From positions 992,001-1,056,000 of the forward strand of contig CBDDDZ010000005.1 of the NCBI GenBank assembly GCA_965226795.1: 64,000 nucleotides of DNA, written 5' to 3'. This document shows positions 1 through 19,732 of this stretch, in pieces (positions within the stretch are counted from its first letter, which is position 1; each line of letters starts with the position of its first letter). Source of the stretch: Candidatus Latescibacterota bacterium. Lineage in GTDB: Bacteria; Latescibacterota; UBA2968; GCA-2709665. The position numbers were made by a program, and so were the translations under genes. The notes under the pieces are model-generated. The model made no database searches and was not told where the DNA came from. It saw nothing but the letters and a program-made list of their open reading frames with translations.

Positions 1-2
1 GT

Positions 3-668
3 TTTTCGTACGTCAATCAGGTTTCATGGCGTGATACACCGTTCATAAATGGAATTAAAGCAAGAGACCTTGTGGTTAACCTGGTACATAAATCTCTCCA
101 TCGTCTGCTGGAAGGGCGGGGATTGAAGTACAGCGACGGAAGGAGGCAATGGTATATTCCGCCTGGCCTTCTAGCGGAAGATAACCTAACCTTCACGTCT
201 CCTGACGGTAAGAAACGTTGGTTCAAGGCGGTCAGTGAACGTACATTTCATTCACGAAACGGAGGAGAGGTATACCGATACCACCTTAGCCCATCGTTAT
301 CGCTGCTGCGCGATCAAACTGATCCATTTGTGCTATTTCTTCGAAACAGGGTTTATTTTACCGATACAAATGGCAAACCCTTAGATGAACGCAAGATTGT
401 ATCGCGCCGCAAACATCTATGCAAAGCATGGTTTAACTACGAGTGGTGGGCGCGTACTCTTGGCGTAGCACAGCTACTCGCCGATGAAGATATGTACATC
501 CGTTTCGGGCCGGAGGGAGAGCAGCAACTCGTCATCAATGCAGTACCCATTTCCTTAGATGTTTCCAAAGGTATCGACGATGATCATGTTGACGAATCTG
601 ATGGGTATTGCACCACTTGGCTTGAGGGGGTCGGGTTGGAAGTTGATATTGTCTCGGTAATTGAGTGA
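3..668 (+). CDS. APAZ-domain partner of short pAgo (C-terminal part; N-terminal effector domain lies outside the window)
   Basis: Frame is open from base 3 (FSYVNQVSWRDTPF...). It contains YRYHLSPS...VYFTDTNGKPL...SRRKHLCKAWFNYEWWARTL, resembling the APAZ C-terminus of TIR-APAZ proteins (RR..K.W.N..W). It abuts the short pAgo gene. Confidence 0.8.
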   Translation, partial: FSYVNQVSWRDTPFINGIKARDLVVNLVHKSLHRLLEGRGLKYSDGRRQWYIPPGLLAEDNLTFTSPDGKKRWFKAVSERTFHSRNGGEVYRYHLSPSLSLLRDQTDPFVLFLRNRVYFTDTNGKPLDERKIVSRRKHLCKAWFNYEWWARTLGVAQLLADEDMYIRFGPEGEQQLVINAVPISLDVSKGIDDDHVDESDGYCTTWLEGVGLEVDIVSVIE

Positions 669-2181
669 GGATCCGATGTTGAGGGATATTACAATTCTCG
701 ATGAGCCAAAGTTAGAGTTTCGGTATGGGCAGCAGCTCGCCGATCCACGCGATGGACTTTCGTTATTCGGGCCTTACGGAGCCGACGCTCCGGGCCATCC
801 CGGTGCCGTATCGTACGGCGTCGTTGGCACACCCGTAGGTATTGAGCTATTCTCCGCGTGGTCGCACGCGATGGTGTGTTCCTGGACAGATGCGCCGAAT
901 GACCGTCGTCGGCTATGGCCACCGTACCCTGGATTTGAGGCAGCGTTCGCCAGCGTCTGGCGTAGCAAACCAGTATGGAAGAAGGCGTTGGAAAGTGATG
1001 AGCTGAGTGACTTCGCCAATCGCCATGATCCCTACGAACGGGTCTATTCCGTCGCAAACCAATATCTTTCAGCTGTTAAGGATTTAGAAAAGTTAGATGA
1101 GCGTGTGAGCGTCATGGTCTGCGTGGTTCCCGACGAAGTCTACAAAACATGCAGGATAAAATCGCGCGCGATCCAGCCGACAGGAGAGGTCGTTTCTAAG
1201 GTCAGACGCGACTCCCGCAAGAAACGACAACTTGAGCTATTCTCGAAGTACGCGCCGGAGCAGTACGACCTCTCGCTGGATTTTCGAAGACAGATCAAGG
1301 CAAGGACAATGGCGCATGGTGTTCCGATTCAGATTGTACGTGAATCGACGCTGAGGCTTAATGACGAGAATCCTTTTGGTTCACGGCAGCTTACACCGCT
1401 TTCACATAGAATGTGGAATCTCGCCACTACACTGTTTTATAAGGGAGGCGGTAAGCCATGGAGGCTTGCTACGGCCAGGGAAGGTGTGTGCTATGTCGGC
1501 CTTGCTTTTCGTCGGTCCGATACCCAAGACGGACCCAAGAGCGCAGCCTGCGCCGCACAGATGTTCCTTGACGATGGCGACGGTGTGGTATTCTTGGGCA
1601 ACTATGGGCCGTGGTATTCACCAGAAAAAAAACAGTTCCGCCTCACTCGTAAAGCTGCCCACGATCTGATAAAGGGCGCTCTTGATACGTACAACCAGCT
1701 ACACGGAAAAAGGCTGACCGAAGTCTTTCTGCATTCACGGTCTGATATCAATGCTGAGGAATTCGAGGGATATCGATCTGCTGCACCCGAAGGGTTGAAG
1801 GTCGTTGGCATTCGCGTGCGTCCGAATCACGACGGACCGCGATTGTACCGGCCGGACAAGAAGTGGCCGGTGATCCGGGGAACGCTGTGGCAGCATTCCC
1901 CAACGAGAGGATATCTGTTTGGATCTGGCTTCAAACCAAGGCTCGGAACCTACGATGGATGGGAGACGCCCGCACCGCTTCAAATTGACATTCAACATGG
2001 TGATGCGGATGTCGTTGATGTGGCACGCGATATTCTCGGTCTTACAAAGCTCAACTATAACGCATGTAACGCCGGTGACACCCAGCCGGTTACTGTCAAA
2101 TTCTCTGATGCCGTGGGCGAAATACTTGTAAGCAACCCGACCGTGACCGACCGACAACCCACTTTCAGGTTTTACATCTAA
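661..2181 (+). CDS. ago: Short prokaryotic Argonaute (MID-PIWI, catalytically inactive), SPARTA-clade-like
   Basis: ~506 aa. Motifs: EPKLEF..GQ..DPRDGL.LFGP, YPGFEAAF, IPIQIVRESTL-like segment, YKGGGKPWRL, CYVGL, CAAQMFLDDGDG, LTKLNYNAC, PVT.KF, C-terminal FRFYI. The DEDX tetrad is absent (GLAF, FLHSRS). Alternative ATG start at 676 with a GAGG RBS. Confidence 0.93.
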   Translation: MSEDPMLRDITILDEPKLEFRYGQQLADPRDGLSLFGPYGADAPGHPGAVSYGVVGTPVGIELFSAWSHAMVCSWTDAPNDRRRLWPPYPGFEAAFASVWRSKPVWKKALESDELSDFANRHDPYERVYSVANQYLSAVKDLEKLDERVSVMVCVVPDEVYKTCRIKSRAIQPTGEVVSKVRRDSRKKRQLELFSKYAPEQYDLSLDFRRQIKARTMAHGVPIQIVRESTLRLNDENPFGSRQLTPLSHRMWNLATTLFYKGGGKPWRLATAREGVCYVGLAFRRSDTQDGPKSAACAAQMFLDDGDGVVFLGNYGPWYSPEKKQFRLTRKAAHDLIKGALDTYNQLHGKRLTEVFLHSRSDINAEEFEGYRSAAPEGLKVVGIRVRPNHDGPRLYRPDKKWPVIRGTLWQHSPTRGYLFGSGFKPRLGTYDGWETPAPLQIDIQHGDADVVDVARDILGLTKLNYNACNAGDTQPVTVKFSDAVGEILVSNPTVTDRQPTFRFYI

Positions 2182-2199
2182 GAGAGGCACAGTAGTAGG

Positions 2200-5100
2200 A
2201 TGACTAAAGAAAATTCCGACAAACGCCTAATCGAAGTCGCCTTTCCGCTGAAACAGGTCTCGCTCGACTCTGTCCACGAGAAAAACGTGCGGCACGGGCA
2301 TATCTCCACGCTTCACATCTGGCCGGCGAGGAGGCCGTTAGCTGCGTGCCGCGCGGCCCTGATCGCGACGTTGCTTCCCGATCCAGGTGATGCGGACACG
2401 CGAAACGAGATCTTGGAGCGTATGGCTGGCCGCATAATTGAGAAGATCGACCGCAAGCGCGTGAACGGCCGTTTGGTTGAAAAGGTCAAGGAGGAAACGC
2501 TTGGCGGCATCCTTCACTGGAAGCGGGAAAACGACCCGAATCTCGCCTGGTTTCGCGAAGAGATCCGCAAGGCGTATGGTGGTCGGGCGCCCAAGGTATT
2601 GGACCCGTTCGCCGGTGGCGGCGCCATTCCCCTCGAAGCGATGCGCCTTGGGTGCGACGTGACGGCCATGGACATCAACCCGGTCGCTTGGTTCATCCTT
2701 AAGTGTACACTCGAGTACCCCCAAAAGCTCGTCGGTCAGACCCGCCCGCTTCCCGGCTTCGCGCTGGAGGACGCCGAATTCATGGAGGCATTCCTGAAGG
2801 CGAAAGGGTTTAAGGGTGCGAGCTTGCGGACGTTTCTGGAGCGCCTCGGCCACGGCGATGGCGGCGAAATCCAGCTCAATGCCCTGGCCCGCAACGACGC
2901 TACGCTCAAAGCGGACCTCGCCTGGCACGTGCGCGCCTGGGGCCGCTGGGTGCTGGCAAGGGCGCGCAAGGAACTGGCTTCGTATTATCCGACCTATGCT
3001 GAGTTCGAGCCGCTGGAGCCGGGCAGAAAGTTCGAGCCGCACCCCATTCGGCTGCTGGAGATCGATGATAACGGGATTCCGCAACTCAATCCGCTCAATG
3101 TCGAATTCGACGACGCCTATCTCAAGGATCCGCGCAACCCGCGCTGGGTCGCCAAACCGACCGTGGCGTATCTCTGGGCGCGGACCGTGACCTGCAAACA
3201 GTGCCGCGCAACGTTGCCGCTGCTCAAGACGCGCTGGTTGTGCAAGAAGGACCACAAGCGGGTGCTGCTGACGATGGAGCCGATGACCGACCAGACCGGC
3301 CGGCCGGCCGAGCACGGCACGGCGCAGGCAGGCGTTGTCTTCGGCGTGCAGTGCGACATCCCGAAAAACGGCGGCAACTCGGCGCAACGGCGGGAGTACG
3401 ACAAACGCATTGGAACGGGCACTATGTCGCGTACCGGCGCATCCTGCCCGTGCTGTGGCGCGATTATGACTATGGCGGACATCCGTTTCGAAGGCCGCGC
3501 CGGTCGGTTGGGCGCGACCATGACGGCTGTGGTGGTGGATGGGCCGAAGGGCAAGGGCAAGGGCAAGGAATACCGCTTGCCCACGGACCCTGAGCGTGCG
3601 GTTGCGGAAGTGCCCGAGGAACAGCTTCAGGCGCTCTATGCGGACATCCCGTTTGGGTTGCCGGAGGAACAGACGCCCAAGGCAGGAATCGGTGCGTCGC
3701 GTGCTTTTTCAGTGGACGGCTATGGCTTTGATACTTGGCGGAAACTGTTTACGAATCGGCAGCTATTGGCGGTTGGAGGGTTCGTTCTGATCCTTAGGAG
3801 ACTGATGCAAGAACTCAAAAATTGGCCGGAGAGTTGGTCCGAGGCGCTGATTGCAAATCTTGCACTCGTGAACGACCGGCTGGCCGACTACTCCAGCGCG
3901 ATTTGCTCTTGGCACAATAGTGGTGAGAAGCTTAGAAATACGTTTGGTCGCTTTGCTCTGCCTATCGTTTGGGATTATACCGAAGTCAATCCGTTGTCGG
4001 ATACCTCCGGCAACTTCCTCGGTGCGCTTGAATGGGTTTCCAAGGTGTGCGAGCATTTGCAAAAAAGCGTCGATTCAGCCCGAAGCGGAGAGAGCATTTG
4101 TGCATCAGCCATCACCTGCCCAACCAATAGTGTCGATCTTATCTTAACCGATCCTCCCTACTACGACGCGATCCCCTATTCCGATCTGATGGACTTCTTC
4201 TATGTCTGGCTGAGGCGCTCGATACCGGGATTATCTGTCGAGGTTGAGGCGGTTTTCTCCGATGCCCTTGGCCCCAAATGGGATCATGACGAAGATGATG
4301 GCGAGCTCATAGACGACGCCAGCCGATTTGGCGGCGACAAAGAGCGGTCCCGGCAGAATTATGAAGAAGGAATGGCCCGCGCATTCTGCTCTTGTCACGC
4401 TGCGTTGCGGCCTCACGGGCGGCTTGTGGTCGTGTTCGCCAACAAGCTTCCCGATGCCTGGGAGACGTTGGTAGCCGCTTTGATCCGTGCCGGTTTCGTC
4501 GTTGACGGCTCCTGGCCCATCCAGACGGAGATGATTAACCGCAACCGAGCAATTGCCTCCGCCGCGTTGTCATCATCCGTCTGGATAGTCTGCAAGAAAC
4601 GGTCCGCCATCCGCCCTGGATGGGACAATAATGTGCTCAAAGAAATGCGAGAGAATATCACCCAGAAGCTTCGAGATTTCTGGGACGCCGGAATCCGCGG
4701 GCCAGACTTCGTATGGGCTGCGACCGGCCCGGCTCTCGAAGCCTTTAGCAAGCACCCCGTGGTGAAGAAGGCAAACGATCCTAACCAACTGATGACGGTG
4801 TCGGAGTTCCTGCGCGAAGTGCGCCGCATGGTTGTGGATTTCGTCGTCGGGCGCGTATTGACACAGGTACCGGGTCAGGAGGCTGCGACCGGCCTCGACG
4901 ACGTGAGCACCTATTACCTGCTCCATCGTCACGACTTCGGCATGTATGAAGCACCCGTTGGCGCCTGCATTCTTTATGCACTGTCGTGTAACCTCTCCGA
5001 TACGGCCCTCGTCAATCAACACGATCTCCTTGCGAAGTCGGGCAAGGGGGGAGGGAGCGACGAACTTGAGGAAGACGACTCGTCCGAAGACGTCGAAGAG

Positions 5101-5445
5101 TCGAGCGGTGGTGCCAAAGTCAAGCTCAGACCCTGGAACCGCCGCGAGGGCCGCACCCTCGGCCTTGATGCCCCGGGCGGAGGCCCAGTACCCCTAATCG
5201 ACCAGTTACATAAGCTCATGCACCTGTGGCGTGCCGGTGACCAGGTCAAGGTGGACGACTATCTCGACACTCGCGGCCTCCAGCGCAACGCCCTGTTCAA
5301 TCAGATCCTTCAGGCCCTCATCGAACTGGCCGACGCTGGTTCTGACGAGCGATCAATACTAGAAGCCTTGAGCAATCACGTCGCGGCGCGGGGTGATGTC
5401 GGGAAACCGGGACAGACGCGGTTTCAGTTCGGACCGGTTAAATAA
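2200..5445 (+). CDS. DUF1156-domain adenine-specific DNA methyltransferase
   Basis: N-terminal KRLIEVAFP...HIWPARRPLAACRA (DUF1156), SAM-binding DPFAGGG, Zn-ribbon CKQC/CPCC, catalytic TDPPYY. Confidence 0.9.
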   Translation: MTKENSDKRLIEVAFPLKQVSLDSVHEKNVRHGHISTLHIWPARRPLAACRAALIATLLPDPGDADTRNEILERMAGRIIEKIDRKRVNGRLVEKVKEETLGGILHWKRENDPNLAWFREEIRKAYGGRAPKVLDPFAGGGAIPLEAMRLGCDVTAMDINPVAWFILKCTLEYPQKLVGQTRPLPGFALEDAEFMEAFLKAKGFKGASLRTFLERLGHGDGGEIQLNALARNDATLKADLAWHVRAWGRWVLARARKELASYYPTYAEFEPLEPGRKFEPHPIRLLEIDDNGIPQLNPLNVEFDDAYLKDPRNPRWVAKPTVAYLWARTVTCKQCRATLPLLKTRWLCKKDHKRVLLTMEPMTDQTGRPAEHGTAQAGVVFGVQCDIPKNGGNSAQRREYDKRIGTGTMSRTGASCPCCGAIMTMADIRFEGRAGRLGATMTAVVVDGPKGKGKGKEYRLPTDPERAVAEVPEEQLQALYADIPFGLPEEQTPKAGIGASRAFSVDGYGFDTWRKLFTNRQLLAVGGFVLILRRLMQELKNWPESWSEALIANLALVNDRLADYSSAICSWHNSGEKLRNTFGRFALPIVWDYTEVNPLSDTSGNFLGALEWVSKVCEHLQKSVDSARSGESICASAITCPTNSVDLILTDPPYYDAIPYSDLMDFFYVWLRRSIPGLSVEVEAVFSDALGPKWDHDEDDGELIDDASRFGGDKERSRQNYEEGMARAFCSCHAALRPHGRLVVVFANKLPDAWETLVAALIRAGFVVDGSWPIQTEMINRNRAIASAALSSSVWIVCKKRSAIRPGWDNNVLKEMRENITQKLRDFWDAGIRGPDFVWAATGPALEAFSKHPVVKKANDPNQLMTVSEFLREVRRMVVDFVVGRVLTQVPGQEAATGLDDVSTYYLLHRHDFGMYEAPVGACILYALSCNLSDTALVNQHDLLAKSGKGGGSDELEEDDSSEDVEESSGGAKVKLRPWNRREGRTLGLDAPGGGPVPLIDQLHKLMHLWRAGDQVKVDDYLDTRGLQRNALFNQILQALIELADAGSDERSILEALSNHVAARGDVGKPGQTRFQFGPVK

Positions 5446-5613
5446 TCAATTGCTTTCCGTACACGGCCCAGCGTGTTCCCTCTTTGCAGAAATTTTCGGA
5501 TTTGACCCGAAAGAGACTCCGATGAAGTAGGGTTTTTTGTCGACTTGTATAACAACAGACATTGGAAGGGTTTGGTCACGAACCGAACTCAAACTTGATC
5601 CGAGGATCCTAGC

Positions 5614-7713
5614 ATGAATCATCGCAAGCAAATCTCAGGCAATTTACTCGGTTCAACTCGCGCTGAAGCCGATATGCGCATGCTGGAAGAGGCCTTTGTA
5701 GAGACCAGCGACTATCTTGCCCTAAAAAATACGGACGACTTCAATTTCATTGTCGGACGTCGTGGCACAGGCAAGACCGCGCTTTACCTCAGGCTCATAT
5801 CTGCATTTTCTCAAGATAAACGATCATTTATGCACTGTGTGAAGCCCCAAGAGCACGATTCGCTCATGGTCTTGGGACTGATTCGCAAACTTGGTCTTAG
5901 TACATACGAGTCCGTTCGCTCTACGTCGAGAGTATTATGGAGAGTGTCGCTGCTATTCTCCGTGGCCGTCGATCTTTGCGGTCACTGGAAGTTCAAGGGT
6001 ACTCAAGAATGTGGAATTCTCAATGGATATCTCGCGAAGCGAAAACACCTGCGGAGACTCGGTGAACTTCAACGGTGTCACGGTATACTAAATGATCTGT
6101 CACCCTCTTTCAATCTGCCAGAGGAGTTACCGGCGCTCATCGCTTCCAAATTTGAAATGAGCACACTGGAGGCAGCAGTCAGGAAAGGATTGGATACCAC
6201 TGGTTCAAAATCAGTCTTTCTGTTCGATGGCCTTGATGAAGGCTGGGGTACCGATACCCTCTCAATTGGAATTCTTGGCGGCCTAGCAATCACGATCTCC
6301 GGTTTTCAGGACGCCGCCCTACCCATACATGGCGAGGTTTTTGTTCGTGACAACATATTCAGATCATTGGCGGCCCAAGATAGTGACTACTCCCGACACA
6401 TTGAGGGTAACACCCTGCGCCTTCACTGGGACGAAGACTCCTTGTTTAATTTTATCACAAACCGGTTACGCATCGTGCTTAATTTACAAGACGTAGAGAG
6501 TAATGTCCGCGTATGGAATCGATTCGCTCACAGGAATGTAAGAGATAGAGAGGGGTTTTATCGCTGTCTCCGGCACACATTGTACAGACCGAGAGACCTG
6601 TTGGTGCTGCTAAACAGCGCAATCGTCAGGGCCAACCGCGCGGGGCGAAGAGAGATCATTGAGGACGACATCCAAAGTACATCGAAGCAAGTGTCGATGG
6701 ATAGACTGGCAGATTTGAAAAAAGAATATGAAGGTGTTTTTCCCGGCTCGAGCATCGTAACTGATTCCCTTGTTGGAGGTGAAGCCTTCCAGACGCTACG
6801 TTACATAACAAATGGTCTTCAAAGTTTGGTTGACGGATTGGACTATTCCCAGCCACAATCTGGGGACATCGCGCTATTGGGCAATGGATCTCAGGTACTG
6901 GACGCTCTATACAGCATCGGACTCTTGGGACTGGTCGAGCCTGCGACGAGCGCTGTTAGATTCTGTCATGACGGGGCACGCTCCATTATCTCGGACTTGC
7001 CCGAGGACAGGTACATCGCGATGCACCCCTGTTACTGGAAGGCCTTGGATATTCGCGCGGGTGAAATTTCCACAGATGTTCTCGTGGAGATTCACGACGA
7101 TTACGAAGTGCGGGCTACCGGCACTGTCCCCGCACTGAGAGCGCGTCGGCTTGGCCGGTTGGTTTCGGACCTGTCAGATATTCCTCTCGGTTCCGGCGGA
7201 GCATCTGGCTTTGAAGATTGGATGTTGCGAACCTGCCGCATCCTGTTTTCGGGGTACCTGAGCAACTTTGAACTTCACCCAGCTAGCGATGGTGTGCAGC
7301 GTCGAGATGTGGTTGCTACGAACAATGCCGAGAGCGGATTTTGGAAGCGTGTACTTGACGACTATGGATCCCGGCAGGTAGTTTTCGAGGTGAAGAACTA
7401 TGAAGACCTTAAGATTGATGACTTCCGGCAATCTCTGTCTTATTCGGGTCGACAGTACGGAAGATTAGTGATTATTGTTCACCGTAGCGAGTCGGAAGCG
7501 TTGAACCAGAGAGCGAGAGGGTGGGTCAAAGAGTTCTGGGACCAACATAACACTCTTGTAATGACTATTCCGTCTGTGGTGCTTGTAAGATGTATACAAA
7601 AAACTCGGAGTCCCAAAAACAGAAAGCGTAGCTATGTTGATCGTAATCTTGGCAAACGCCTTGATACATTTGAGCGTAGTTACGTGGTGCTGCGCCATAT
7701 CAGGCGGTCTTGA
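5614..7713 (+). CDS. P-loop ATPase (Sll1717/FunZ-like) fused to a C-terminal PD-(D/E)XK restriction-endonuclease-like domain
   Basis: Walker A IVGRRGTGKT, Walker B FLFDGLDE, RPRD motif. C-terminus FE...RRDVV...VFEVKN...Q resembles an Mrr-like REase. Confidence 0.7.
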   Translation: MNHRKQISGNLLGSTRAEADMRMLEEAFVETSDYLALKNTDDFNFIVGRRGTGKTALYLRLISAFSQDKRSFMHCVKPQEHDSLMVLGLIRKLGLSTYESVRSTSRVLWRVSLLFSVAVDLCGHWKFKGTQECGILNGYLAKRKHLRRLGELQRCHGILNDLSPSFNLPEELPALIASKFEMSTLEAAVRKGLDTTGSKSVFLFDGLDEGWGTDTLSIGILGGLAITISGFQDAALPIHGEVFVRDNIFRSLAAQDSDYSRHIEGNTLRLHWDEDSLFNFITNRLRIVLNLQDVESNVRVWNRFAHRNVRDREGFYRCLRHTLYRPRDLLVLLNSAIVRANRAGRREIIEDDIQSTSKQVSMDRLADLKKEYEGVFPGSSIVTDSLVGGEAFQTLRYITNGLQSLVDGLDYSQPQSGDIALLGNGSQVLDALYSIGLLGLVEPATSAVRFCHDGARSIISDLPEDRYIAMHPCYWKALDIRAGEISTDVLVEIHDDYEVRATGTVPALRARRLGRLVSDLSDIPLGSGGASGFEDWMLRTCRILFSGYLSNFELHPASDGVQRRDVVATNNAESGFWKRVLDDYGSRQVVFEVKNYEDLKIDDFRQSLSYSGRQYGRLVIIVHRSESEALNQRARGWVKEFWDQHNTLVMTIPSVVLVRCIQKTRSPKNRKRSYVDRNLGKRLDTFERSYVVLRHIRRS

Positions 7714-8131
7714 ACTAAAGTGACCAGGTGAGTCGGACAGCCATTACGTCCTACATGCCACTATATGGTGAGTTATATCCTCATCCGAGTTTTCGGGTGG
7801 TATTTGGGACGAAGTGCAAAACACGAGATAGCGGCGAGAACGGATATCGGTGATTACGGCACTGAGAAGGCCTTCGTTGCAGAGGTGTATTGGCAATCCC
7901 AAATCTCAACCGTGCAGAACTCTCACTTCCAAAACGATACTGATTGTCTGACTTTGAAAATAGGCAAGTCAGCTCCCTGACGACAAGACTGTTCCTGCAC
8001 TCCTTATAAATAGCGAGGACGCAATTGCAATAGCAGTGTCCTGGTTACCACCTTATGTGGTTGTGAAACAACGAAAAACATCCAGGATTCTTTACATCAC
8101 TTCTTAGTCAAGTTCGAGCGAGGACTCAGAA

Positions 8132-9451
8132 ATGCCCAGGATAGAGGGTTTCAGAGTTAGAAACTTCAAGGTGCTCAGGGATGTTTCGTTGGGACGGCTT
8201 TGGAACCAACAACGAACCAGACCATTAACCCCTATGACCGCAGCAATCGGAAAAAACGGTGTGGGGAAGAGTGCTCTCTTCGACGCATTTGGGTTTTTAG
8301 CAGATGCACTCAAATCCGGCGTCGAAGAGGCGTGCGACGCACGGGGACGTGGCGGATTCGAGAAGGTGCGGTCGCAGGGTGAAACAGGCCCTATTGAGTT
8401 CGAAGTGTATTACAGACAACACGGCAACGCACGGCCGATTACCTACGAAATTGCAATTAAGGCGGACGAGTCTGGCCGCCCTTACGTAGTGCGGGAACGT
8501 CTTAGGCAAAGACGAAGAAACCAGAGATACGGCCGTCCATTCTCATTCTTGTGGCTGGAGGCAGGCAACGGCGTGGCGTGGAAAGGCGAGGAGGGGTATC
8601 AGAAGGAAGACCTTGAGTCGTTGCTTGAGAAAGCTCTCGAGCAGGATGACGTTGAGGCGAGGTTGTCGATGGTGAGGGAATTTATGGAATTGATGCGGAA
8701 GGAGGAACCGAACGATACAGAGCGCATTGAATTAAAAGATCCGCGCAGACTCGGGATAGCGACACTCGGCGCCTTGAAACAACATCCGCGAATTTCTGCG
8801 TTTAGCCAGTTTATTGAGGGATGGTATCTTAGCTACTTCACGCCGGATGCTGCTCGGAGCCTTCCCCTGGCCGGTCCCCAGAGCCGGCTCAGTATCCATG
8901 GAGACAACCTCGGAAACGTCGTTCAATTCATGGAGCGTGAACATCCGAAGCGATTCGAGACGATACTAGAAAAGATCGCAAACAAAATCCCGGGTATAGA
9001 CCGGATCGACACGGAAAGATCCAAAGACGGTCGGGTGCTGCTCCGATTCAACGACAAGGGCTTTCAGGATCCATTTTACGCACAACAAATGTCCGATGGA
9101 ACTCTTAAGATCTTTGCCTATTTGTTGCTCCTTGAAGATCCCAGTCCGCCTCCGTTTATATGTATCGAAGAGCCGGAAAATGGTCTCTATCACAAGTTGC
9201 TTGAGACGCTTGCCCACGAATTCCGCCAACACGCCAGCGGATCCGCGACCGGTTCGCAGGTCTTTGTTACCACACACCAACCCTATTTCATCGATGCTCT
9301 AGACCCAAGTGAAGTTTGGATTCTGGGAAAGGGAAGGGACGGTTTTTCAACAATTCGCAGGGCGAGCGACGATCCGATCGTCAACAATATGGTCGAGGAG
9401 GGCCTGCCCCTGGGCGGCCTCTGGTATAGCGACTATTTGGACGCGAGGTGA
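8132..9451 (+). CDS. ABC-family (AAA_21) ATPase, defence-associated
   Basis: IGKNGVGKS, signature MSDGT, Walker B ICIEEPENGL, H-loop TTHQ. No transmembrane segments. Confidence 0.85.
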   Translation: MPRIEGFRVRNFKVLRDVSLGRLWNQQRTRPLTPMTAAIGKNGVGKSALFDAFGFLADALKSGVEEACDARGRGGFEKVRSQGETGPIEFEVYYRQHGNARPITYEIAIKADESGRPYVVRERLRQRRRNQRYGRPFSFLWLEAGNGVAWKGEEGYQKEDLESLLEKALEQDDVEARLSMVREFMELMRKEEPNDTERIELKDPRRLGIATLGALKQHPRISAFSQFIEGWYLSYFTPDAARSLPLAGPQSRLSIHGDNLGNVVQFMEREHPKRFETILEKIANKIPGIDRIDTERSKDGRVLLRFNDKGFQDPFYAQQMSDGTLKIFAYLLLLEDPSPPPFICIEEPENGLYHKLLETLAHEFRQHASGSATGSQVFVTTHQPYFIDALDPSEVWILGKGRDGFSTIRRASDDPIVNNMVEEGLPLGGLWYSDYLDAR

Positions 9452-9455
9452 TCGG

Positions 9456-10106
9456 ATGCACTTTGATATACTCGTCGAAGACGCGTCTGGCAAGACGGTC
9501 CTAGATATTTTGATTCCTAAGATCATCGGGGATCAAGATACATTCAGAGTTACCAGTTACAAAGGAATTGGCCATATTCCCAGAAATCTGAAGAGTGGAG
9601 CCGATGCGTCAAAACGCATTTTGCTTGGCCAACTACCCAAGTTGCTCAGGGGGTATGGAAAGACATATGCCGGTTACGGCGCGGACTATCCTGCGGCGGT
9701 AATTTTAGTTTGCGACCTGGACAATGAGTGCCTGAAGACGTTTCGGCAGCGACTCTTCGCTGTCCTCAAGGCCTGCAACCCCAGACCGGAAACCCGGTTC
9801 TGTATTGCCATTGAAGAAAGTGAAGCATGGCTGCTCGGCGACATTTCCGCGGTGAGGGCAGCATATCCGAGACTCAAGGACAACGTGCTGAGTGGTTACA
9901 AAAATGACTCGATTTGCGGCACATGGGAGCTTCTGGCCGATGCCGTCTACACCGGTGGCTCGAGTGCACTCGAGGGTCAGGGCTGGCGGTCAGTTGGCAG
10001 GGAGAAATCTGCATGGTCCGAGAAAATCGCGCCTCTGATGGATGTGGACAACAACGCGTCGCCCAGTTTCCGTTACTTTCGAGAGAAGCTTCGTGAGCTT
10101 ACCTGA
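9456..10106 (+). CDS. DUF4276 family TOPRIM-like nuclease
   Basis: ATG 4 nt after the ATPase stop. ILVED (TOPRIM Glu), VCDLD (DxD), IEESEAWLLGD, C-terminal SPSF. Confidence 0.75.
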   Translation: MHFDILVEDASGKTVLDILIPKIIGDQDTFRVTSYKGIGHIPRNLKSGADASKRILLGQLPKLLRGYGKTYAGYGADYPAAVILVCDLDNECLKTFRQRLFAVLKACNPRPETRFCIAIEESEAWLLGDISAVRAAYPRLKDNVLSGYKNDSICGTWELLADAVYTGGSSALEGQGWRSVGREKSAWSEKIAPLMDVDNNASPSFRYFREKLRELT

Positions 10107-10178
10107 GTATCCAGTCCGAGCCCACATGGTGGCAATTGATCGTTTTTTCTCACATAGACAACAGTTCGGCGGAATGAG

Positions 10179-13100
10179 GTGACTATGGCAATCAAATCTT
10201 CCCACAGACCCTGGCACGAAATAGTGCAGCTACGCGACGACCTGAGAACCGGGGAACTCTCGCTGGCCATATTCGCTGCCGATCTGTACGATGTGGTGAT
10301 GCAGAAGGGTAGGAGACAGGTGTACGAGCGCCCAGAAGATTTCTTCGCCCTGACGTATCCGACTTTAAATCTTCGTGAACTGGTCAAGGACGTCGCGACA
10401 CGGTTGGCCGGCCAGAGCGACAAGGCCTATCGGAAACTGTCGATAAATTACGGCGGTGGCAAGACCCACACACTCATCGCGCTCCGGCATCTCGCGCACG
10501 ATCCGGACAACTTGCCGGACCTGCCGGCGGTCAGGGATTTTGATGCGCACATCGGGTTCAGGATGCCAAAGGCCCGCGTGGCGGCGCTATGCTTTGACAA
10601 GATCGACCTCGAAAAGGGTGTCGAGACGCTGGGCCCCGGCGGCGAGATCAGAATGCTCAAGAACCCGTGGAGCATCCTCGCGTTCCAACTGGCGGGGACA
10701 GACGGCCTCCGACTCATTCACGCCGACGGCGAGGACGAAGAGCGCGACACGCCCCCGGCCGAACCGTTAGTGGTGGAACTTCTGTCAAAGCCGCAAGCGG
10801 AGGGGCTCTCGACGCTGGTGCTGATTGACGAAGTGCTGATGTATATCCGTACGCTGGTTGAAGCGCATCCGGATTCGCGAGGACGCTTGATCAGCTTCTT
10901 CCAATATCTAACCCAGGCCGTGGTTAAAGTGGACCGCTGTGCAATGGTGGCCTCACTTCTCGCCTCGGATCCGAGGAAGCACGACGAATTTGGAAATGAA
11001 CTCCTGCGGGACGTAGCCGACGTCTTCGGCCGCCAGATGGAAGAGGATGCAAGCCCGGTAAGCAAGGAGGACGTGGCGGAGGTGCTGCGGCGTCGATTCT
11101 TTAAACCAGAATCCATCCGCAACACAGGCGAATTCCGTCCGATTGTCACTTCCATAGTCGGCAGTATTGCGGCGATGGACGAGAATACGAGGAAGGAGCG
11201 CGCAGCAGCCGAGGAACGATTCCTTTCCAGTTATCCCTTCCACCCTGACCTCACGGAGGTCTTCTACACCCGATGGACTCAACTCGAAGGGTTTCAGCGC
11301 ACCCGTGGTATCCTGCGTACGTTTGCCATTGGCCTGCGCGATGCCGAGAAGTGGGATACGAGTCCGCTTGTCGGGCCGAATATTCTGCTGGCCGATCGAG
11401 AAAAGGACGGTCTCGCCGAAGCCGCGAGTGAACTCGCTTCCTTTGCCAGCGTCGACACGGCTACGGGTAAGCATCAGGAATGGCGGCCGATCCTCGAAGG
11501 CGAGTTGGCGAAGGCGCGCGCCATCCAGGCCGAGTCGACTGGCCTCAGCCATCGGGAGATGGAACAGGCTGTTATAGCCGTATTCCTGAGTTCTCAGCCC
11601 ATTGGTCACAAGGCACTTACCCGAGAAATCATGGTGCTTGTTGGAGCAGCCAATCCGGATAAGATTGAATTGGAGAAGGCTCTGCGTCGCTGGATCGAGG
11701 TGTCGTGGTTTCTCGACGAATCAGAGGTCGCCACAGGAGATAACGGATCGGAGGGGCAATTGCCCATGGCATGGCGGTTGGGTAATCGTCCCAACCTGCG
11801 CCAAATGCACCACGATGCCTGCAGCAATCGTGTATCTCAGTCTCTCGTAGAGGCGCAAGTGATCGATGCGATCGAGAAACAGCGTTCGCTTACCTCCGGT
11901 GCGTCCGCAGCCGGCGCAACGGTGCATAACCTTCCCGAGAGACCTCGAGACATCGGGGACGACGGAAAGTTCCACTACGCTGTGCTTGGCCCGGACATGT
12001 CGTCGGAGTCGGGCAAACCTAGTACCGCAGCCAGGCGGTTCATCGACGAGACGACTGCCCCCGACCGCCCGCGTGTGAATCGCAACGCAATCGTCCTCGC
12101 CGCTCCTTCCAGGGACGGTCTCGATGCCGCTCGCGTTCGCGTTCGAGAGTATCTCGGCTGGATGGAGGTAGGTGAGCAACTTAAGGGCCAGCCAATCGAC
12201 CCGATTCGAGAACAGATGCTCTCGAGCGAGACCGAAGCGGCGCGAAGGCGGATCCCGGAGGCCGTCAGGCAGGCCTATTCCATTGTTGTTACGGTGAACG
12301 AAAGCAACGATGTCCATGCCTTCAAGGTCGTCGTGACTGAAGAACCGCTGTTCACGACCATAAAGGCCGACAGGCGAGCCCGCATCCAGGAGACGCCCAT
12401 CAACTCCGAGGCAATGATGCCCGGAGGCCCCTATGACTTGTGGAGGGAAGACGAACCGTCACGTCGGGTAAAGGATCTTGTCGGAGCCTTCGCCCAGTTT
12501 GCAAAATTGCCGAAAATGCTGCGGCAGAAGGAAATTTCCGATACCGTAGTACATGGCGTTCAGGAAGGGATATGGGTGGCACAGGTAACCCGCCCCGACA
12601 GGACCATCAGGACTTTCTGGCGGACGCCAATCGACGAGACTGCCATACAAGATCCGGGCCTTGAAGTGTTTCTGCCGGAAGCGGCCACGTTAAGTGAACT
12701 CGTTCCAGACCTGCTCGTGCACAAAAAACTCCCTGGGCTCTGGTCGTCCGATGAACTCGCGGTGCAGGATGTTTATGACTATTTCTCGGGTGGCCACACA
12801 GTAGTCGTACAAAGGGAGGGTTACGAAGAAACAGTTATGATCCCTAAATGTGACTCAATGGATGTCGAAGCCGCCATTTCTCAAGGCGTTGAGCAGGGTC
12901 TGTTGTGGTTGACGAACGGGCCGGCCTCGATTCTCGAAGAAGCCGTGCCGCCTGGAGTACTCACCTCGTCGGCCGTGCTAAGGCCGCCGCCGGAAGGAAT
13001 CGACGTTGCTCAATTGATGCCGCCTTCGATTCCGAGCGCATGGGTAGAAGGCAAGGCCAACGCGCTTGCCATCGCCACCGCGCTTTCTGCTCAGTGGGCA

Positions 13101-13505
13101 AGGACCCTGCCCTGGTCGACGGTCGAAGCAGTGATCGATGCTGGTATACGAGCGCGATGGATTGAGGTCGGCACTGACAGCGCGCCCTGGCCAAGCGGCA
13201 TCGGCAACGCACAACACGTAATCCTGCAAATTCCGTTGCCGGGAGGTGTGGGCGACGCCGACGGGAGGCCATATGGCAGCGGAGATGAACCAAAGGGAGT
13301 GCTCCGTGCCGAAGCTGCACTTGAAGCCAATGGTATCCAGGACCTGGCTGATCAGATTCCGGAAATTACCAAAGCCGCTGTGGGTAATGATCTTAAATTC
13401 AAAGTCCGAATTGACTTCGGAGGAGAAAAGTCTCCCGATCTGGAGGCGGTGAAAAAGATTAACGAACTGCTTTCTGATGTGTCGGACTCATTCAAGCTTG
13501 AATGA
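10179..13505 (+). CDS. DUF499 family AAA+ ATPase (BrxC/PglY-related)
   Basis: PWHEIVQLRDDL...FAADL...FFALTYPT, Walker A YGGGKTH, Walker B LVLIDE, SYPFHP, FQRTRGILR. Confidence 0.88.
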   Translation: MTMAIKSSHRPWHEIVQLRDDLRTGELSLAIFAADLYDVVMQKGRRQVYERPEDFFALTYPTLNLRELVKDVATRLAGQSDKAYRKLSINYGGGKTHTLIALRHLAHDPDNLPDLPAVRDFDAHIGFRMPKARVAALCFDKIDLEKGVETLGPGGEIRMLKNPWSILAFQLAGTDGLRLIHADGEDEERDTPPAEPLVVELLSKPQAEGLSTLVLIDEVLMYIRTLVEAHPDSRGRLISFFQYLTQAVVKVDRCAMVASLLASDPRKHDEFGNELLRDVADVFGRQMEEDASPVSKEDVAEVLRRRFFKPESIRNTGEFRPIVTSIVGSIAAMDENTRKERAAAEERFLSSYPFHPDLTEVFYTRWTQLEGFQRTRGILRTFAIGLRDAEKWDTSPLVGPNILLADREKDGLAEAASELASFASVDTATGKHQEWRPILEGELAKARAIQAESTGLSHREMEQAVIAVFLSSQPIGHKALTREIMVLVGAANPDKIELEKALRRWIEVSWFLDESEVATGDNGSEGQLPMAWRLGNRPNLRQMHHDACSNRVSQSLVEAQVIDAIEKQRSLTSGASAAGATVHNLPERPRDIGDDGKFHYAVLGPDMSSESGKPSTAARRFIDETTAPDRPRVNRNAIVLAAPSRDGLDAARVRVREYLGWMEVGEQLKGQPIDPIREQMLSSETEAARRRIPEAVRQAYSIVVTVNESNDVHAFKVVVTEEPLFTTIKADRRARIQETPINSEAMMPGGPYDLWREDEPSRRVKDLVGAFAQFAKLPKMLRQKEISDTVVHGVQEGIWVAQVTRPDRTIRTFWRTPIDETAIQDPGLEVFLPEAATLSELVPDLLVHKKLPGLWSSDELAVQDVYDYFSGGHTVVVQREGYEETVMIPKCDSMDVEAAISQGVEQGLLWLTNGPASILEEAVPPGVLTSSAVLRPPPEGIDVAQLMPPSIPSAWVEGKANALAIATALSAQWARTLPWSTVEAVIDAGIRARWIEVGTDSAPWPSGIGNAQHVILQIPLPGGVGDADGRPYGSGDEPKGVLRAEAALEANGIQDLADQIPEITKAAVGNDLKFKVRIDFGGEKSPDLEAVKKINELLSDVSDSFKLE

Positions 13506-13689: not shown

Positions 13690-13926
13690 GTGATGCTTCT
13701 AGTCGACGCAGAGGAGGCCAGCACCCAACTCTCCCACCTAATGGCGCGAGTCGAAGCGGGTGAAGAGGTGGTTATTACCCAAAACGGTGTTCCGATTGTG
13801 CGGCTCGTCCCTTATGGGATTCGCGCTGGAAGTCGGAAGTTTGGTGCCATGAAGGGCCGAGTTGTGGTCCACGACGAAATCTTCGATCCGCTTCCAGAGG
13901 TCGAGTTGGACGCGTGGGGGACGTGA
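13690..13926 (+). CDS. Phd/YefM family antitoxin (orphan)
   Basis: EASTQLSHLMARVEAGEEVVITQNGVPIVRLVP...FDPLPE..L pattern. No intact VapC follows. Confidence 0.8.
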   Translation: MMLLVDAEEASTQLSHLMARVEAGEEVVITQNGVPIVRLVPYGIRAGSRKFGAMKGRVVVHDEIFDPLPEVELDAWGT

Positions 13927-14111
13927 TCGCATGCGCACACGACTTTACATTCTTAACTTTCTGCAGCCGACTGTGTCAACAACCCCGTTTCATTAACTCG
14001 ATCCAGCCCAGTTTTTCAATCCATTCTACGATGCCGAACTGAGCGCCGGAAGGGATATTTAATGTCCGGGCGTGGTGAGTGGTTTCGGTGCCACGGTAAA
14101 GGCGTTCATGA

Positions 14112-14447
14112 ATGACACAGGTCACAGATACTCTCATAGACCGGATGGTTCAGGCTATTGTTGATGAAGTCGATCCCGAGCAGGTGATCCTCTTCGGATC
14201 CCGCGGGCGCGGCGATGAGCGGCAGGACTCGGACGTGGATCTGGTTGTTGTGGAAGCGGCGCCCTTCGGCCCGAAGCGAAGTCGCCACAAAGAGATGGTC
14301 AGACTCTACCACGCCGTGGCGGGGTTTCCGGTCGCAGCCGACGTCCTTGTCTACTCTCGTGACGATGTGGACTACTGGCGCGACTCGCTCAACCACGTGC
14401 TGGCGCGGGCGCTAAGGGAGGGTGAGGTGCTCTATGAGCGACGTTAA
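14112..14447 (+). CDS. Minimal nucleotidyltransferase (MNT) antitoxin
   Basis: ILFGSRGRG...DSDVDLVVV motif. An overlapping ATG at 14434 (MSDVKCAQR) looks like the stub of a lost HEPN partner. Confidence 0.85.
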   Translation: MTQVTDTLIDRMVQAIVDEVDPEQVILFGSRGRGDERQDSDVDLVVVEAAPFGPKRSRHKEMVRLYHAVAGFPVAADVLVYSRDDVDYWRDSLNHVLARALREGEVLYERR

Positions 14448-14469
14448 GTGTGCACAGAGGGGATGCTCG

Positions 14470-14938
14470 TTCGTGCAGGGGAGCACGTTCGCAGCGATCA
14501 AGAGTGACGATGTTGCCAGGATCAAGGTACCACTGCCGCCGCTAGCTGAACAACGCCGTATCGTCGAAATTCTCGACCATGCTGATCGCCTCCGCCGTCT
14601 CCGCGCCGAAGCAGATGTCAAAGCGACGCGGGTCCCACATGCCCTTTTCATCAAATGTTCGGCGATCCGGCAACGAATCCAATGGGTTGGTCGGTCAAGC
14701 GTTTTGATAGCGTTTGTCAGTCACGTCTCGGTAAGATGCTGGATCAAAAGCAACAAACGGGTCGAATTCCCGTTTTTATCTTAGAAATGCAAATGAATAC
14801 TGGGATCGGCTGGACCTACGTGAGGTTCTGGAAATGGACTTCAATGAGTATGGTCGTGATGAATTCAGACTAAGGAAAGGGGACGTCCTGATCTGCGAAG
14901 GCGGCGAGCTTGGTCGTTGCGCGATTTGGAACAGCTGA
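14470..14938 (+). pseudogene. hsdS: Type I R-M specificity subunit (HsdS) internal fragment, frameshifted
   Basis: IKVPLPPLAEQRRIVEILD...ALF / MFGDPATNPMGW / YLRNAN...LRKGDVLICEGGELGRCAIW are spread over three frames. No start codon or C-terminus. Confidence 0.8.
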
Positions 14939-14947
14939 GGTGAATCA

Positions 14948-15172
14948 ATGAAAACCAAGGCAATCAGCAGGAGTCCCGGCATCCTCGGCGGAACCCCCGT
15001 ATTCTCTGGAACCAGGGTCCCGATACGTATCCTGATCGAACACCTGGAAGCAGGGGACTGTCTCGACGACTTTCTTTATAGCTATCCCACCGTGTCACGT
15101 GATCAGGCGATTGAGGTCCTCACAACCGCGAAGATGGCGCTGACCGGGAAAACTGATGAAACTGTTGTTTGA
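14948..15172 (+). CDS. DUF433 antitoxin
   Basis: ISRSPGILGGTPVFSGTRVPI...LEAG...YPTV. Confidence 0.85.
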   Translation: MKTKAISRSPGILGGTPVFSGTRVPIRILIEHLEAGDCLDDFLYSYPTVSRDQAIEVLTTAKMALTGKTDETVV

Positions 15173-15539
15173 CGAGTCCATGCCCAGACCACTCGAAGCG
15201 TACTTCCCTGGATCGTTTGAGTTAATTGCGGTCCAGCGCATGGGCTGGACGGGGCGATCATACGGTGTTCTCCTGCGCCTGGCCATGGCGCACGATGTCG
15301 AGCACGAGAGTTTCTTCGACTACTGCTCTGCTCGACTGGTTTTCAGTCGGTCCGAATCGCTGGGGTCGTTTCTAAAGGAGTCAAAGCAGCACCTCTTCCG
15401 TCGCGCTCAGGCTCCGCAGGCGCTGGCCTGCCTCCGTGACACGGATTCCGCCAGGTATGTGCAGGAGGTCCGTAGCCTGTTATCGGATGATAGAATCCGG
15501 CTGCAAAACTATAGAGACAAAATGGTGACACGATGCTGA
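15156..15539 (+). pseudogene. Chimera: truncated DUF5615 PIN toxin fused to a fragment of a STAND/Avs-like protein
   Basis: MKLLFDESMP...MGWTG (PIN-like) for ~46 aa, then HESFFDYC.AR...QHLFRRAQ...L..LRD.D..RY, typical of the post-NTPase region of STAND proteins. Confidence 0.55.
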
Positions 15540-17275
15540 CCAAACTAACCATCCGCAACTTTAAGCGCTTCGGCGAAGTGGAGATCGAATTGGGGAGTCC
15601 GGTTGTCTTCATCGGGCCCAACAACTCGGGCAAAACCTCGGCGATGCAGGCGCTGGCGCTCTGGGACATCGGTCTCAAGCGCTGGAACGAAAAACGATCC
15701 GGAAAGAGCGCAACCGAAAAACGCCCGGGAGTGACCATTAACCGGCGAGACCTCGTTGCAATTCCGATTCCTGAGGCGAACCTTCTCTGGCGCGATCTTC
15801 ACGTGAGGGACGTGCGAACCGTGGATGGGAGGCAACGTACCAGCAACATTCGAATAGACATCATTGTCGAGGGAGTTACAGAGGACAGGCACTGGAAATG
15901 CGGCCTTGAGTTCGACTACGCAAACGACGAGTCCTTCTACTGCAGGCCGCTACGCCTATCAGATTGTAAAACACCAGATCGTATGCCCGTTCCTGACGAA
16001 GCCGGAAGCACGCGAATTGCCTTCCTGCCGCCGATGTCGGGCTTGGCAGCGACGGAAACGCGCCTCGATGAGGGGGCCGTCAACGTACGAATTGGCGAGG
16101 GTCGTACGGCAGAAGTTCTGCGAAACCTGTGCTTTCAAGTCCATCAGACACAACCCGAACAGTGGAATATCCTTGTTGAGCATATACTGACCCTGTTCGG
16201 ATCACGGCTCGATCCGCCCCGTTACATCACCGAGCGGGGGGAGATCGCGATGACCTACACCGAAGAGAACGTCCGTCTTGACCTGTCGTCATCCGGACAA
16301 GGTCTGCAACAGACACTGCTCCTTCTGGCGTACATTTACGCTAATCCTGGTTCGGTTCTGCTCCTGGAGGAGCCGGACGCGCATTTAGAGATTCTTCGTC
16401 AGCGCCAGATCTACGGGCTGCTCACCGACATCGCGAGAGAAAGTGGTAGTCAGATCATTGCCGCCAGCCACTCCGAAGTGCTGCTCAACGAGGTCGCAGG
16501 TCGGGAAGTGGTCATCTCGTTCGATGGAGGGCCGCATCCGATTGACGACAGCGGAAGCCAGGTTCTGAAGGCGCTCAATGGAATCAGTTTCGACCAGTAC
16601 TATCAGGCCCAACATACCGGCTGGGTGCTCTACCTGAAGAGCTCGGCGGACCTATCGATACTGCAGGCGTTCGCCAGGAGACTGGGACACGAACGCTCGA
16701 TCCGGGCGCTCGAGCGGCCCTTTGTGAAATACGTGCAAAATCAGCCGACGACCGCTCAGCACCATTACCACGGCCTGCGCGAGGCTCTCCCCGCGCTTCG
16801 GGGCGTTGCCCTCTTCGATCGCCTCGAATCGGAGAGTTCCGATATCGCCCAAATCGAGTGTTTGACGTGGACGCGTAGAGAGATTGAGAACTACGTCTGC
16901 TCGCGGGCGACACTCGAAGCATACGCGACGGGTACCGCAAAGGACGCCTCGGCAGGACCCCTGTTCGCTGCGTCTGAAGTAAGCAGGCGCCAGAACGCCA
17001 TGCGCGAAGCTATTGCGGAAGTAGAAGCGGCGCTGATGACGCTGGGTAAGGAATCTCCCTGGAGTGCAGACGCCAAGGTAAGTGACGATTTCCTGGCTCC
17101 GCTCTTCGAAGCATACTTTTACAAGCTCGGACTACCGAACCTGATGGCCAAGAAAAACTCCTGTCAGTTGGTCGAATACGTGCCGGATAGCGAAATCGAT
17201 CCGGAAATCTGTGCCAAACTCGACGCAATTGCGAACGTCGCGGAAATCGCGACACCTGGGGGAGAACGAACGTGA
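15533..17275 (+). CDS. OLD/AAA_15-like ABC ATPase with a C-terminal TOPRIM-like domain
   Basis: IRNFKRF, IGPNNSGKT, SGQG, LLLEEPDAHL, ASHS, REIENY. The TOPRIM motif is degenerate (LYLKSSAD). Confidence 0.75.
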   Translation: MLTKLTIRNFKRFGEVEIELGSPVVFIGPNNSGKTSAMQALALWDIGLKRWNEKRSGKSATEKRPGVTINRRDLVAIPIPEANLLWRDLHVRDVRTVDGRQRTSNIRIDIIVEGVTEDRHWKCGLEFDYANDESFYCRPLRLSDCKTPDRMPVPDEAGSTRIAFLPPMSGLAATETRLDEGAVNVRIGEGRTAEVLRNLCFQVHQTQPEQWNILVEHILTLFGSRLDPPRYITERGEIAMTYTEENVRLDLSSSGQGLQQTLLLLAYIYANPGSVLLLEEPDAHLEILRQRQIYGLLTDIARESGSQIIAASHSEVLLNEVAGREVVISFDGGPHPIDDSGSQVLKALNGISFDQYYQAQHTGWVLYLKSSADLSILQAFARRLGHERSIRALERPFVKYVQNQPTTAQHHYHGLREALPALRGVALFDRLESESSDIAQIECLTWTRREIENYVCSRATLEAYATGTAKDASAGPLFAASEVSRRQNAMREAIAEVEAALMTLGKESPWSADAKVSDDFLAPLFEAYFYKLGLPNLMAKKNSCQLVEYVPDSEIDPEICAKLDAIANVAEIATPGGERT

Positions 17276-17291
17276 ACCTGACTGCCTATAG

Positions 17292-18191
<900 letters not shown>

Positions 18192-18357
18192 ATTAACGTG
18201 GCAAATTGGACCCGTACCGAAAACCCAGTTCCGATTAAATCGTGTCCGGCCTGTAAAATTAAGTGTGGCGCCACCAAATATGATGACGGCGGCGAAATGA
18301 CGCCAGTCAAGGTCATTGCCAATACGGCCATCTCTAGCAAACGGAAGGCGATCGACG

Positions 18358-19701: not shown

Positions 19702-19730
19702 TTGACATGTAACTATTAAATGGTTACTTT
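19702..19730 (+). promoter_or_regulatory. Sigma70-like promoter with overlapping palindromic operator of the TA module
   Basis: TTGACA-17 nt-TACTTT. The imperfect palindrome GTAACTATTAAATGGTTAC lies in the spacer. The -10 is unusually close to the ATG. Confidence 0.45.
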
Positions 19731-19732
19731 GG

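Follow-up and report, generated by a model that had tools for sequence, protein, structure and literature searches.

The stretch of DNA analysed here (the window; 64,000 nucleotides, positions 992,001 to 1,056,000 of contig CBDDDZ010000005.1 in assembly GCA_965226795.1 of a Candidatus Latescibacterota bacterium) opens within an Hma defence operon that carries SPARTA, a TIR-APAZ protein paired with a short prokaryotic Argonaute (pAgo), between hmaA and hmaB. We propose, at a probability of about 0.62, that SPARTA constitutes a self-contained and likely co-transcribed second defence layer, a predicted NAD-depleting killer, seated in an exchangeable hmaA-hmaB (A-B) slot. As most sister operons hold other cassettes in this slot, SPARTA is likely a swappable layer and not part of a new joint machine.

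The window starts within a 3.1-Mb contig and the operon could therefore be extended leftwards, where the upstream SNF2 helicase that a first-pass annotation of this DNA had proposed to test for was found as HmaA (531 bits). The full order is hmaA, orf267, TIR-APAZ, pAgo, hmaB, a 699-amino-acid (aa) ATPase, HEC-01A, HEC-01B (HEC, Hma-embedded candidate) and hmaC, i.e., six cargo genes in two Hma slots with three open reading frames (ORFs) per junction, HEC-01 included. The seven window genes up to the end of hmaC at 13505 all lie on the + strand, as had been noticed from the window alone, and such co-orientation is the norm in Hma, where Payne 2024 (10.1101/2024.01.29.577857) reports it for 96.7% of embedded genes, across four system types. 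The DUF1156-DUF499 operon of the first-pass annotation stands as to its two families, but the three genes between them had gone unnamed. The features that carry the argument are:

1..668, + strand: 3' part of the TIR-APAZ gene (last 221 aa), profile match Aga
L002 7298-8668 (= G000:C5 991298-992668), + strand: the whole TIR-APAZ gene, 456 aa, starting 702 bp left of the window
661..2181, + strand: short pAgo (MID-PIWI), PADLOC pAgo_I 566 bits, 1.5e-170
2182..2199, + strand: 18-bp spacer between pAgo and hmaB, purine-rich, a ribosome-binding-like sequence for hmaB
2200..5445, + strand: hmaB, DUF1156 N6-adenine methyltransferase, 1081 aa, HmaB 376 bits, Pfam DUF1156
10179..13505, + strand: hmaC, DUF499 AAA+/STAND ATPase, 1108 aa, HmaC 255 bits, Pfam DUF499
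L002 2615-6220, + strand: hmaA, 1201 aa, HTH_3, SNF2 helicase and NOV_C nuclease, HmaA 531 bits, 1.9e-159

The motifs of all three hma products are intact, namely motif I DPFAGGG at 135 and DPPY at 651 in HmaB, Walker A GGGKT at 92 and Walker B LIDE at 215 in HmaC, and the helicase and C-terminal PD-(D/E)xK nuclease motifs in HmaA.

The APAZ gene adjoins the short pAgo, whose stop at 2181 lies 18 bp before the DUF1156 ATG at 2200, just as first described. Its effector had been thought possibly new, an idea now ruled out, for the N-terminal domain is a TIR (TIR_2 in Pfam, E 1.6e-18, residues 14-139) and the best PADLOC model is Aga_TIR-PNTD1-PNTD2 over 10-433 (1.7e-74). Since the effector is a TIR domain the pair is, judged from its sequence, a SPARTA of short pAgo clade S2A. 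The five best Protein Data Bank (PDB) matches of the pAgo are SPARTA pAgos of 506-541 aa, matched over their full length at E 1e-98 to 1e-100, and the same entries are matched by TIR-APAZ, which aligns to its nearest solved structures, also SPARTA, at E ~1e-22. Glu85 of TIR-APAZ aligns to the catalytic E77 of characterised proteins, the catalytic Glu being kept in all 12 close TIR-APAZ ORFs that include the TIR, and in a low-identity alignment the equivalents of G42 and N116 appear to be retained as well. The C-terminal tail is acidic, with 10 D/E among the last 32 residues; such a tail is autoinhibitory in the BabSPARTA structure (10.1101/2023.09.23.559129). The 11 unbroken close TIR-APAZ ORFs measure 448-484 aa, against ~450 aa in the solved proteins, and contain no extra domain. 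The MID pocket of the pAgo reads R209/K213/Q224/K261, and the first two slicer Asp positions, placed by what we take to be the long-pAgo motifs rather than by alignment to an active pAgo, are replaced (VGLAF and FLHSRS). The protein thus appears slicer-dead, as first proposed: an Argonaute lacking the DEDX tetrad, i.e., predicted to be inactive. The TIR-APAZ ORF ends at 668 and overlaps a pAgo start at TTG 661 (506 aa), whereas ATG 676 (501 aa), behind GAGG, is the likelier start. The possibility that orf267 is a third SPARTA component was rejected, as it has no match in any related locus examined.

A separate observation concerns twelve more distant ORFs that precede pAgo (L041, L043-L052 and L061; 579-613 aa), in all of which the catalytic Glu is absent at the aligned position. 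One of them was scanned and is a REase-TIR-APAZ protein, which suggests that in this group a nuclease may have replaced the NADase as effector.

The address of this SPARTA lineage emerged from a search that started from the Argonaute, used one genome per GTDB species and gave 129 matching stretches and 60 confirmed loci. The close relatives are 13 loci (L003-L015, 73-85% identical) with titles from Latescibacterota, Chloroflexota, Poribacteria and, once, Gemmatimonadetes, and each of the 13 lies within or next to Hma genes or the remains of an hmaB. The pAgo has hmaA upstream in 12/13 and a long hmaB match downstream in 11/13, and it directly abuts hmaB in 9/13, so that the proposed recurrence of pAgo directly upstream of DUF1156 is borne out and the notion that close homologues are never adjacent to DUF1156/DUF499 falls away. 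One close locus (L004) stops at a contig edge, and another (L008) shows a decayed copy of the hmaB start immediately after pAgo, at about 4530-4645. Among the 46 more distant pAgo loci (34-65%), 23 of which have at least 7.5 kb upstream and at least 5 kb downstream, none has an Hma match at E < 1e-6, and the nearest free-standing SPARTAs (46-65%) share the architecture of the embedded ones.

The converse does not hold. HmaB at 72-89% occurs in 16 of 100 related genomes, and in only three of these is the A-B slot occupied by SPARTA, whose TIR-APAZ is frameshifted in one case; of the other 13, one retains a 33-codon pAgo remnant against hmaB and 12 are without SPARTA, among them a genome that lacks hmaA within 16 kb. 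A second order, that around G101, gave HmaB matches at E 1e-150 or better in 13 of 150 other genomes; the close pAgo is present in two of the 13, in one of them across a contig break. Reciprocal co-occurrence is therefore absent: SPARTA implies Hma (13/13), and Hma does not imply SPARTA (3/16; 2/13). At three loci SPARTA has decayed and hmaA and hmaB are retained: TIR-APAZ is frameshifted in L010 (possibly an assembly error), L015 has a large deletion, and in L156 the 33-codon remnant against hmaB is what is left.

What replaces SPARTA is drawn from a common, shuffled pool of cargo. Three genomes of the same genus hold Hma at the same chromosomal site, with upstream DNA 82-86% identical, and yet carry other cargo, which in one of them is CBASS. 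When 28 cargo proteins were chosen from the pool, 12 matched PADLOC at 1e-20; these comprise a CBASS cyclase and effector, a type II restriction-modification (RM) pair, NsnABC, AriAB-like and HEC-01/PDC-M07-like ABC ATPases, PDC-S19 and PDC-S32. We take NsnABC to be Menshen. A cargo protein of 1215-1219 aa occupies the A-B slot of three genomes (L148 10946-14605, L150 12431-16090 and L152 10484-14131), and the one copy scanned had no PADLOC match at 1e-20. Another family, a 534-aa protein (L146 12145-13749), likewise has no PADLOC match and gives up to 14 matches per genome, some in tandem. In the distant HmaB genes of L157, L158 and L136-L138 an insert of ~700-800 bp was seen at residue ~375.

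The 18-bp gap could not serve as a sign specific to SPARTA, a candidate that the control with other cargo ruled out. Measured from the cargo stop to the conserved RLIE codon of hmaB, the distance is 32-78 bp in 10 SPARTA junctions and at most 81 bp in 12 of the 22 measurable non-SPARTA junctions (28 junctions in the control, five without a motif match and one at a contig end). In line with the first description of the junction as having no terminator or room for a promoter, a sequence scan found no terminator-like site in the 18-bp gap between pAgo and hmaB. The operon is less compact elsewhere, with intergenic distances of 263 bp (ahead of TIR-APAZ), 168 bp and 418 bp that leave room for internal promoters. 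Promoter-like sites were at chance level (7 found vs 5.5 +/- 2.4 expected).

As to the history of the insertion, SPARTA-plus and SPARTA-minus operons interleave in one well-supported clade whether the tree is built from HmaB (39 rows, quick IQ-TREE) or from HmaA (50 rows, FastTree), and on the HmaA tree presence and absence require at least 11 changes; SPARTA-plus rows are over-sampled in these trees, many of them having entered through the search that began with the Argonaute. Synonymous divergence (dS) from the window genes is similar for SPARTA and its frame, 0.92/0.74 vs 0.83 for hmaA in L005 and 1.70/1.54 vs 1.80 in L003, with dN/dS of 0.05-0.24 where measurable; dS was saturated in 5/8 pairs for pAgo and 4/8 for TIR-APAZ. 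Stubs of the first ~33-49 hmaB codons lie inside the A-B slot in L005, L144, L147, L148, L149 and L152, with further ones in L096/L097, L105 and L114 and a decayed one in L008. Those placed exactly are:

L005 11550-11633: hmaB stub
L144 5871-5740: hmaB stub
L147 14124-14225: hmaB stub
L148 14632-14730: hmaB stub
L149 14116-14196: hmaB stub
L152 14158-14256: hmaB stub

Six stubs end at one codon (the L of HISTL), and five of these six precede members of two cassette families. Site-specific integration at the stubs was considered as well; comparison of the stub ends revealed no evident arm common to the stubs beyond those two families. Since stubs lie in the slot, recombination at the hmaB start suggests itself as the route of exchange, and we read the stubs as the probable footprint of cassette insertion there. 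The simplest account would be one old insertion, co-inheritance across three phyla and then repeated loss or replacement, with exchange likely proceeding by recombination between conserved hma flanks. On the best reading SPARTA is a long-established resident cassette of this Hma lineage, and a dispensable one.

We favour a division of labour in which the HmaA helicase-nuclease would restrict phage, and self-marking and scanning likely fall to HmaB and HmaC. By analogy with characterised SPARTA (Koopal 2022; Finocchio 2023, a preprint), the heterodimer would load small RNAs from highly transcribed genes, bind complementary single-stranded DNA (ssDNA), release its acidic tail and oligomerise, and the oligomer would hydrolyse NAD(P)+ and so remove invaded cells, adding an abortive layer to Hma. 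The two layers, though in one operon, may act independently. Several points weigh against this proposal. The SPARTA lineage was never found free of Hma (13/13 close loci), while other cargo roams: close HEC-01A homologues sit in this Hma in 6/24 genomes, the window's included, and the 534-aa family is found in 41/101 genomes, mostly outside Hma. Such fidelity fits some dependence on Hma, yet kin loci and one ancestral event explain it. One possible exception to the Hma-only address is L062, a row set apart from the pAgo counts, with a deleted SPARTA remnant 86% identical over 90 C-terminal residues and 48% in an APAZ piece; 16.7 kb of its sequence hold no Hma gene and its genome gave no match to HmaB, and it may instead belong to a more distant group. 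Co-transcription of SPARTA with the hma genes is likely, but a 263-bp gap precedes TIR-APAZ. The NADase activity is a prediction, and residues required for full MapSPARTA activity (D40/K41, W46, R54 and R114) align here to L48/G49, P54, N62 and P121, in a low-identity pairwise alignment with numbering matched at a constant offset of 2. With these interface residues apparently replaced the geometry of activation may differ.

The alternative that survives best, although we consider it unlikely, is pure hitch-hiking, in which the slot is a genomic sink and SPARTA, driven by a promoter of its own in the 263-bp gap, gains only transport and stays put merely because it entered the gene pool once, inside Hma. 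All cases do fall in one monophyletic Hma clade, none of 48 distant metagenomic HmaB loci (51-63%; many contigs short) has SPARTA between hmaA and hmaB, and turnover is quick, since L010 with SPARTA and L148 without it differ by ~0.06 changes per site in HmaA; it is also the explanation offered in the Discussion of Payne 2024. Against a mere passenger stand purifying selection over dS > 1.5 in the same slot and the short pAgo-hmaB gap, which is retained at 10/10 abutting junctions and implies read-through into hmaB. Nor was a consensus promoter found in the 263-bp gap, although this is a weak test.

We regard as improbable a one-way coupling in which unmethylated invader DNA, once opened or nicked by the HmaA helicase-nickase, would provide the ssDNA target of SPARTA, turning failed restriction into cell death, or its variant in which SPARTA acts as a guard of Hma against inhibitors from phage, in the manner of PrrC at EcoprrI. 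It would accord with the strict address of the lineage (13/13), and characterised SPARTA needs ssDNA as its target and by itself defends weakly against phage (Koopal 2022, PMC9097488). Two other short-pAgo types stand directly after hmaC in 2 of the 48 distant loci, an HNH-APAZ and pAgo pair at a gap of 37 bp (L118 15209-17921) and a REase-TIR-APAZ gene at 51 bp, followed by the contig end (L131 16869-18389). Moreover, over 10 loci, which are kin and so not independent, the tree distances of SPARTA follow HmaA (Spearman 0.69 for pAgo and 0.78 for TIR) above the adjacent HmaB (0.38 and 0.31). Yet HmaB is itself an outlier against HmaA (0.26), so that this pattern may reflect only hmaB recombination and host phylogeny. 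Coupling is further opposed by the lack of any added domain or lineage-specific interface motif, by the like architecture of the nearest free-standing SPARTAs amid 46 loci without an Hma match, and by APAZ being the sole specific partner of short pAgos in Koopal 2022. The BB-loop motif of the TIR is also present in free-standing, non-embedded relatives and hence is the mark of a sub-lineage rather than of adaptation to Hma.

Carried further, SPARTA would depend on Hma outright, with HmaA making the ssDNA target and methylation giving the short Argonaute its discrimination of self from non-self. Were this true, it would explain why the lineage has kept to a single slot in three phyla when other cargo moves about, and why further short-Argonaute types stand against hma genes, but we hold it to be a distinctly doubtful proposition. 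Methylation-based discrimination was part of the first-pass annotation and is proposed for Hma by Rakesh & Krishnan 2026 (PMC12839542), whereas T4 grown on a host overexpressing HmaB infected no differently (Liu 2024, PMC11232893). A dedicated composite system, also put forward at the outset, is left unsupported by the SPARTA-free sister operons, which are the majority of close Hma operons and hold other cassettes in the slot, and by the decay of SPARTA at three loci where hmaA and hmaB persist.

Apart from SPARTA the operon carries the following features:

L002 6231-7034 (left of the window), + strand: orf267, cargo of 267 aa without a match in Pfam or PADLOC
L002 2551-2579, just before hmaA: sigma70-like site, a candidate only, the best found, 10/12
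5614..7713, + strand: 699-aa P-loop ATPase cargo, Walker A at 48, Sll1717-like (Atlas)
8132..9451, + strand: HEC-01A ABC ATPase, 439 aa, PADLOC 636 bits, 5e-192
9456..10106, + strand: HEC-01B (DUF4276), 216 aa, PADLOC 310 bits, 1.7e-93

HEC-01B is TOPRIM-like according to Payne 2024. The 699-aa ATPase, which has a weak match to PDC-M36A in its C-terminal part and a 76% homologue in the same B-C slot of G011, is a candidate single-gene defence system. The Atlas neighbours of orf267 (score 0.97) are unnamed, and DUF5677/DUF6988 occur in a minority of the members of lower matches. After hmaC the island continues (window 13700-20333) with small toxin-antitoxin-like genes (a minimal nucleotidyltransferase at 14112-14447), a 580-aa ABC ATPase, whose 79% counterpart in G011 likewise follows hmaC, and a DEDDh exonuclease-BRCT gene followed by a second exonuclease-like ORF. 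The same genome holds a second helicase/DUF1156/DUF499-type locus (G000:C2 154866-184462), in which the methylase occurs twice, a HEC-01A-like gene is present and many ORFs intervene. In sequencing runs, 12 pieces at least 99% identical came from a run labelled sponge metagenome, and three RNA runs (word shares 0.10-0.18) gave near-identical contigs, 151-462 bp among those listed, which cover hmaA, TIR-APAZ, pAgo, hmaB, cargo and hmaC; they may stem from DNA carry-over and as contigs cannot show transcripts, and among those listed none spans the pAgo-hmaB junction.

With its constant place inside Hma, this short-Argonaute lineage departs from the description of such systems as stand-alone. The case is a well-resolved natural history, raised above the routine by the one-way fidelity of the lineage to one slot, and close Hma operons with, without and with decayed SPARTA form a natural comparison set that bears on the source of the ssDNA targets of SPARTA and on whether embedding brings functional synergy. 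If it is true that HmaA feeds SPARTA, restriction-like systems would be linked to Argonaute-based abortive infection.

Embedding in Hma is itself already published, and SPARTA is one more cargo type in a known hotspot. Payne 2024 finds embedded genes in 931 of 1,485 Hma systems, known systems being 22.8% of these genes, and Liu 2024 gives insertions in about 66.5% and demonstrates nuclease-dependent phage defence for a Halomonas HmaA. Like the Hma described in both papers, the present operon has the order hmaA-hmaB-hmaC, co-oriented cargo in both junctions and HEC-01, and its three ORFs per junction are within the limit of three that Payne 2024 used. It differs from the cargo named there (Septu, PARIS, Ppl, GmrSD-like genes and HECs) in holding SPARTA; the terms 'pAgo' and 'SPARTA' are absent from the main text of Payne 2024, whose figures or supplements may list Argonautes. 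Our literature searches returned no paper naming SPARTA inside Hma, though figures and supplements may list the pair, and the text of PMC11705971 mentions hmaA, hmaB and pAgo once each and SPARTA not at all. A 2026 preprint (10.64898/2026.05.29.728809) places Schlafen-Argonautes near RM and BREX genes, in a linkage that is not conserved.

A canonical BREX system (types 1-6) was ruled out, as 14 ORF queries covering the operon and its flanks gave no PglZ or BrxC among the best 25 matches per protein; the methylase matches PglXI weakly (1e-11), the helicase matches BrxH at a lower level and the ATPase matches HmaC and DUF499 only. The label BREX-related given at first pass agrees with Rakesh & Krishnan 2026, who renamed Hma the Type-1 BREX-related system. 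Like that DUF499-centred system, the present locus combines a DUF499 ATPase, a DUF1156 N6-methylase and an SNF2 helicase with a C-terminal nuclease, with auxiliary effectors in or near it; unlike it, HmaC here has no HEPN match, and the extra effector is a predicted guide-dependent NADase and not a nuclease. The word 'Argonaute' does not occur in the main text of that paper, whose supplement may list the pairing.

As in characterised SPARTA (Koopal 2022; PDB entries 8fex, 8ifk and 8qlo), TIR-APAZ precedes a short pAgo, both are of the same sizes, and the catalytic Glu, the acidic tail, the missing slicer tetrad and, apparently, the G42/N116 equivalents are shared. In contrast to those systems, the present one is embedded in Hma and not stand-alone, and it appears to deviate from them at the TIR BB-loop and at residues of the tetramer interface. 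The placing of further defence genes within a modification-based system has parallels in PrrC in EcoprrI and BrxU in BREX, discussed in Payne 2024, for which guard or complementary functions were shown; any such role of SPARTA in Hma would be hypothetical. Payne 2024 and Liu 2024, as far as consulted, describe no cargo lineage seen only in Hma, and in this the SPARTA lineage reported here stands apart from them.

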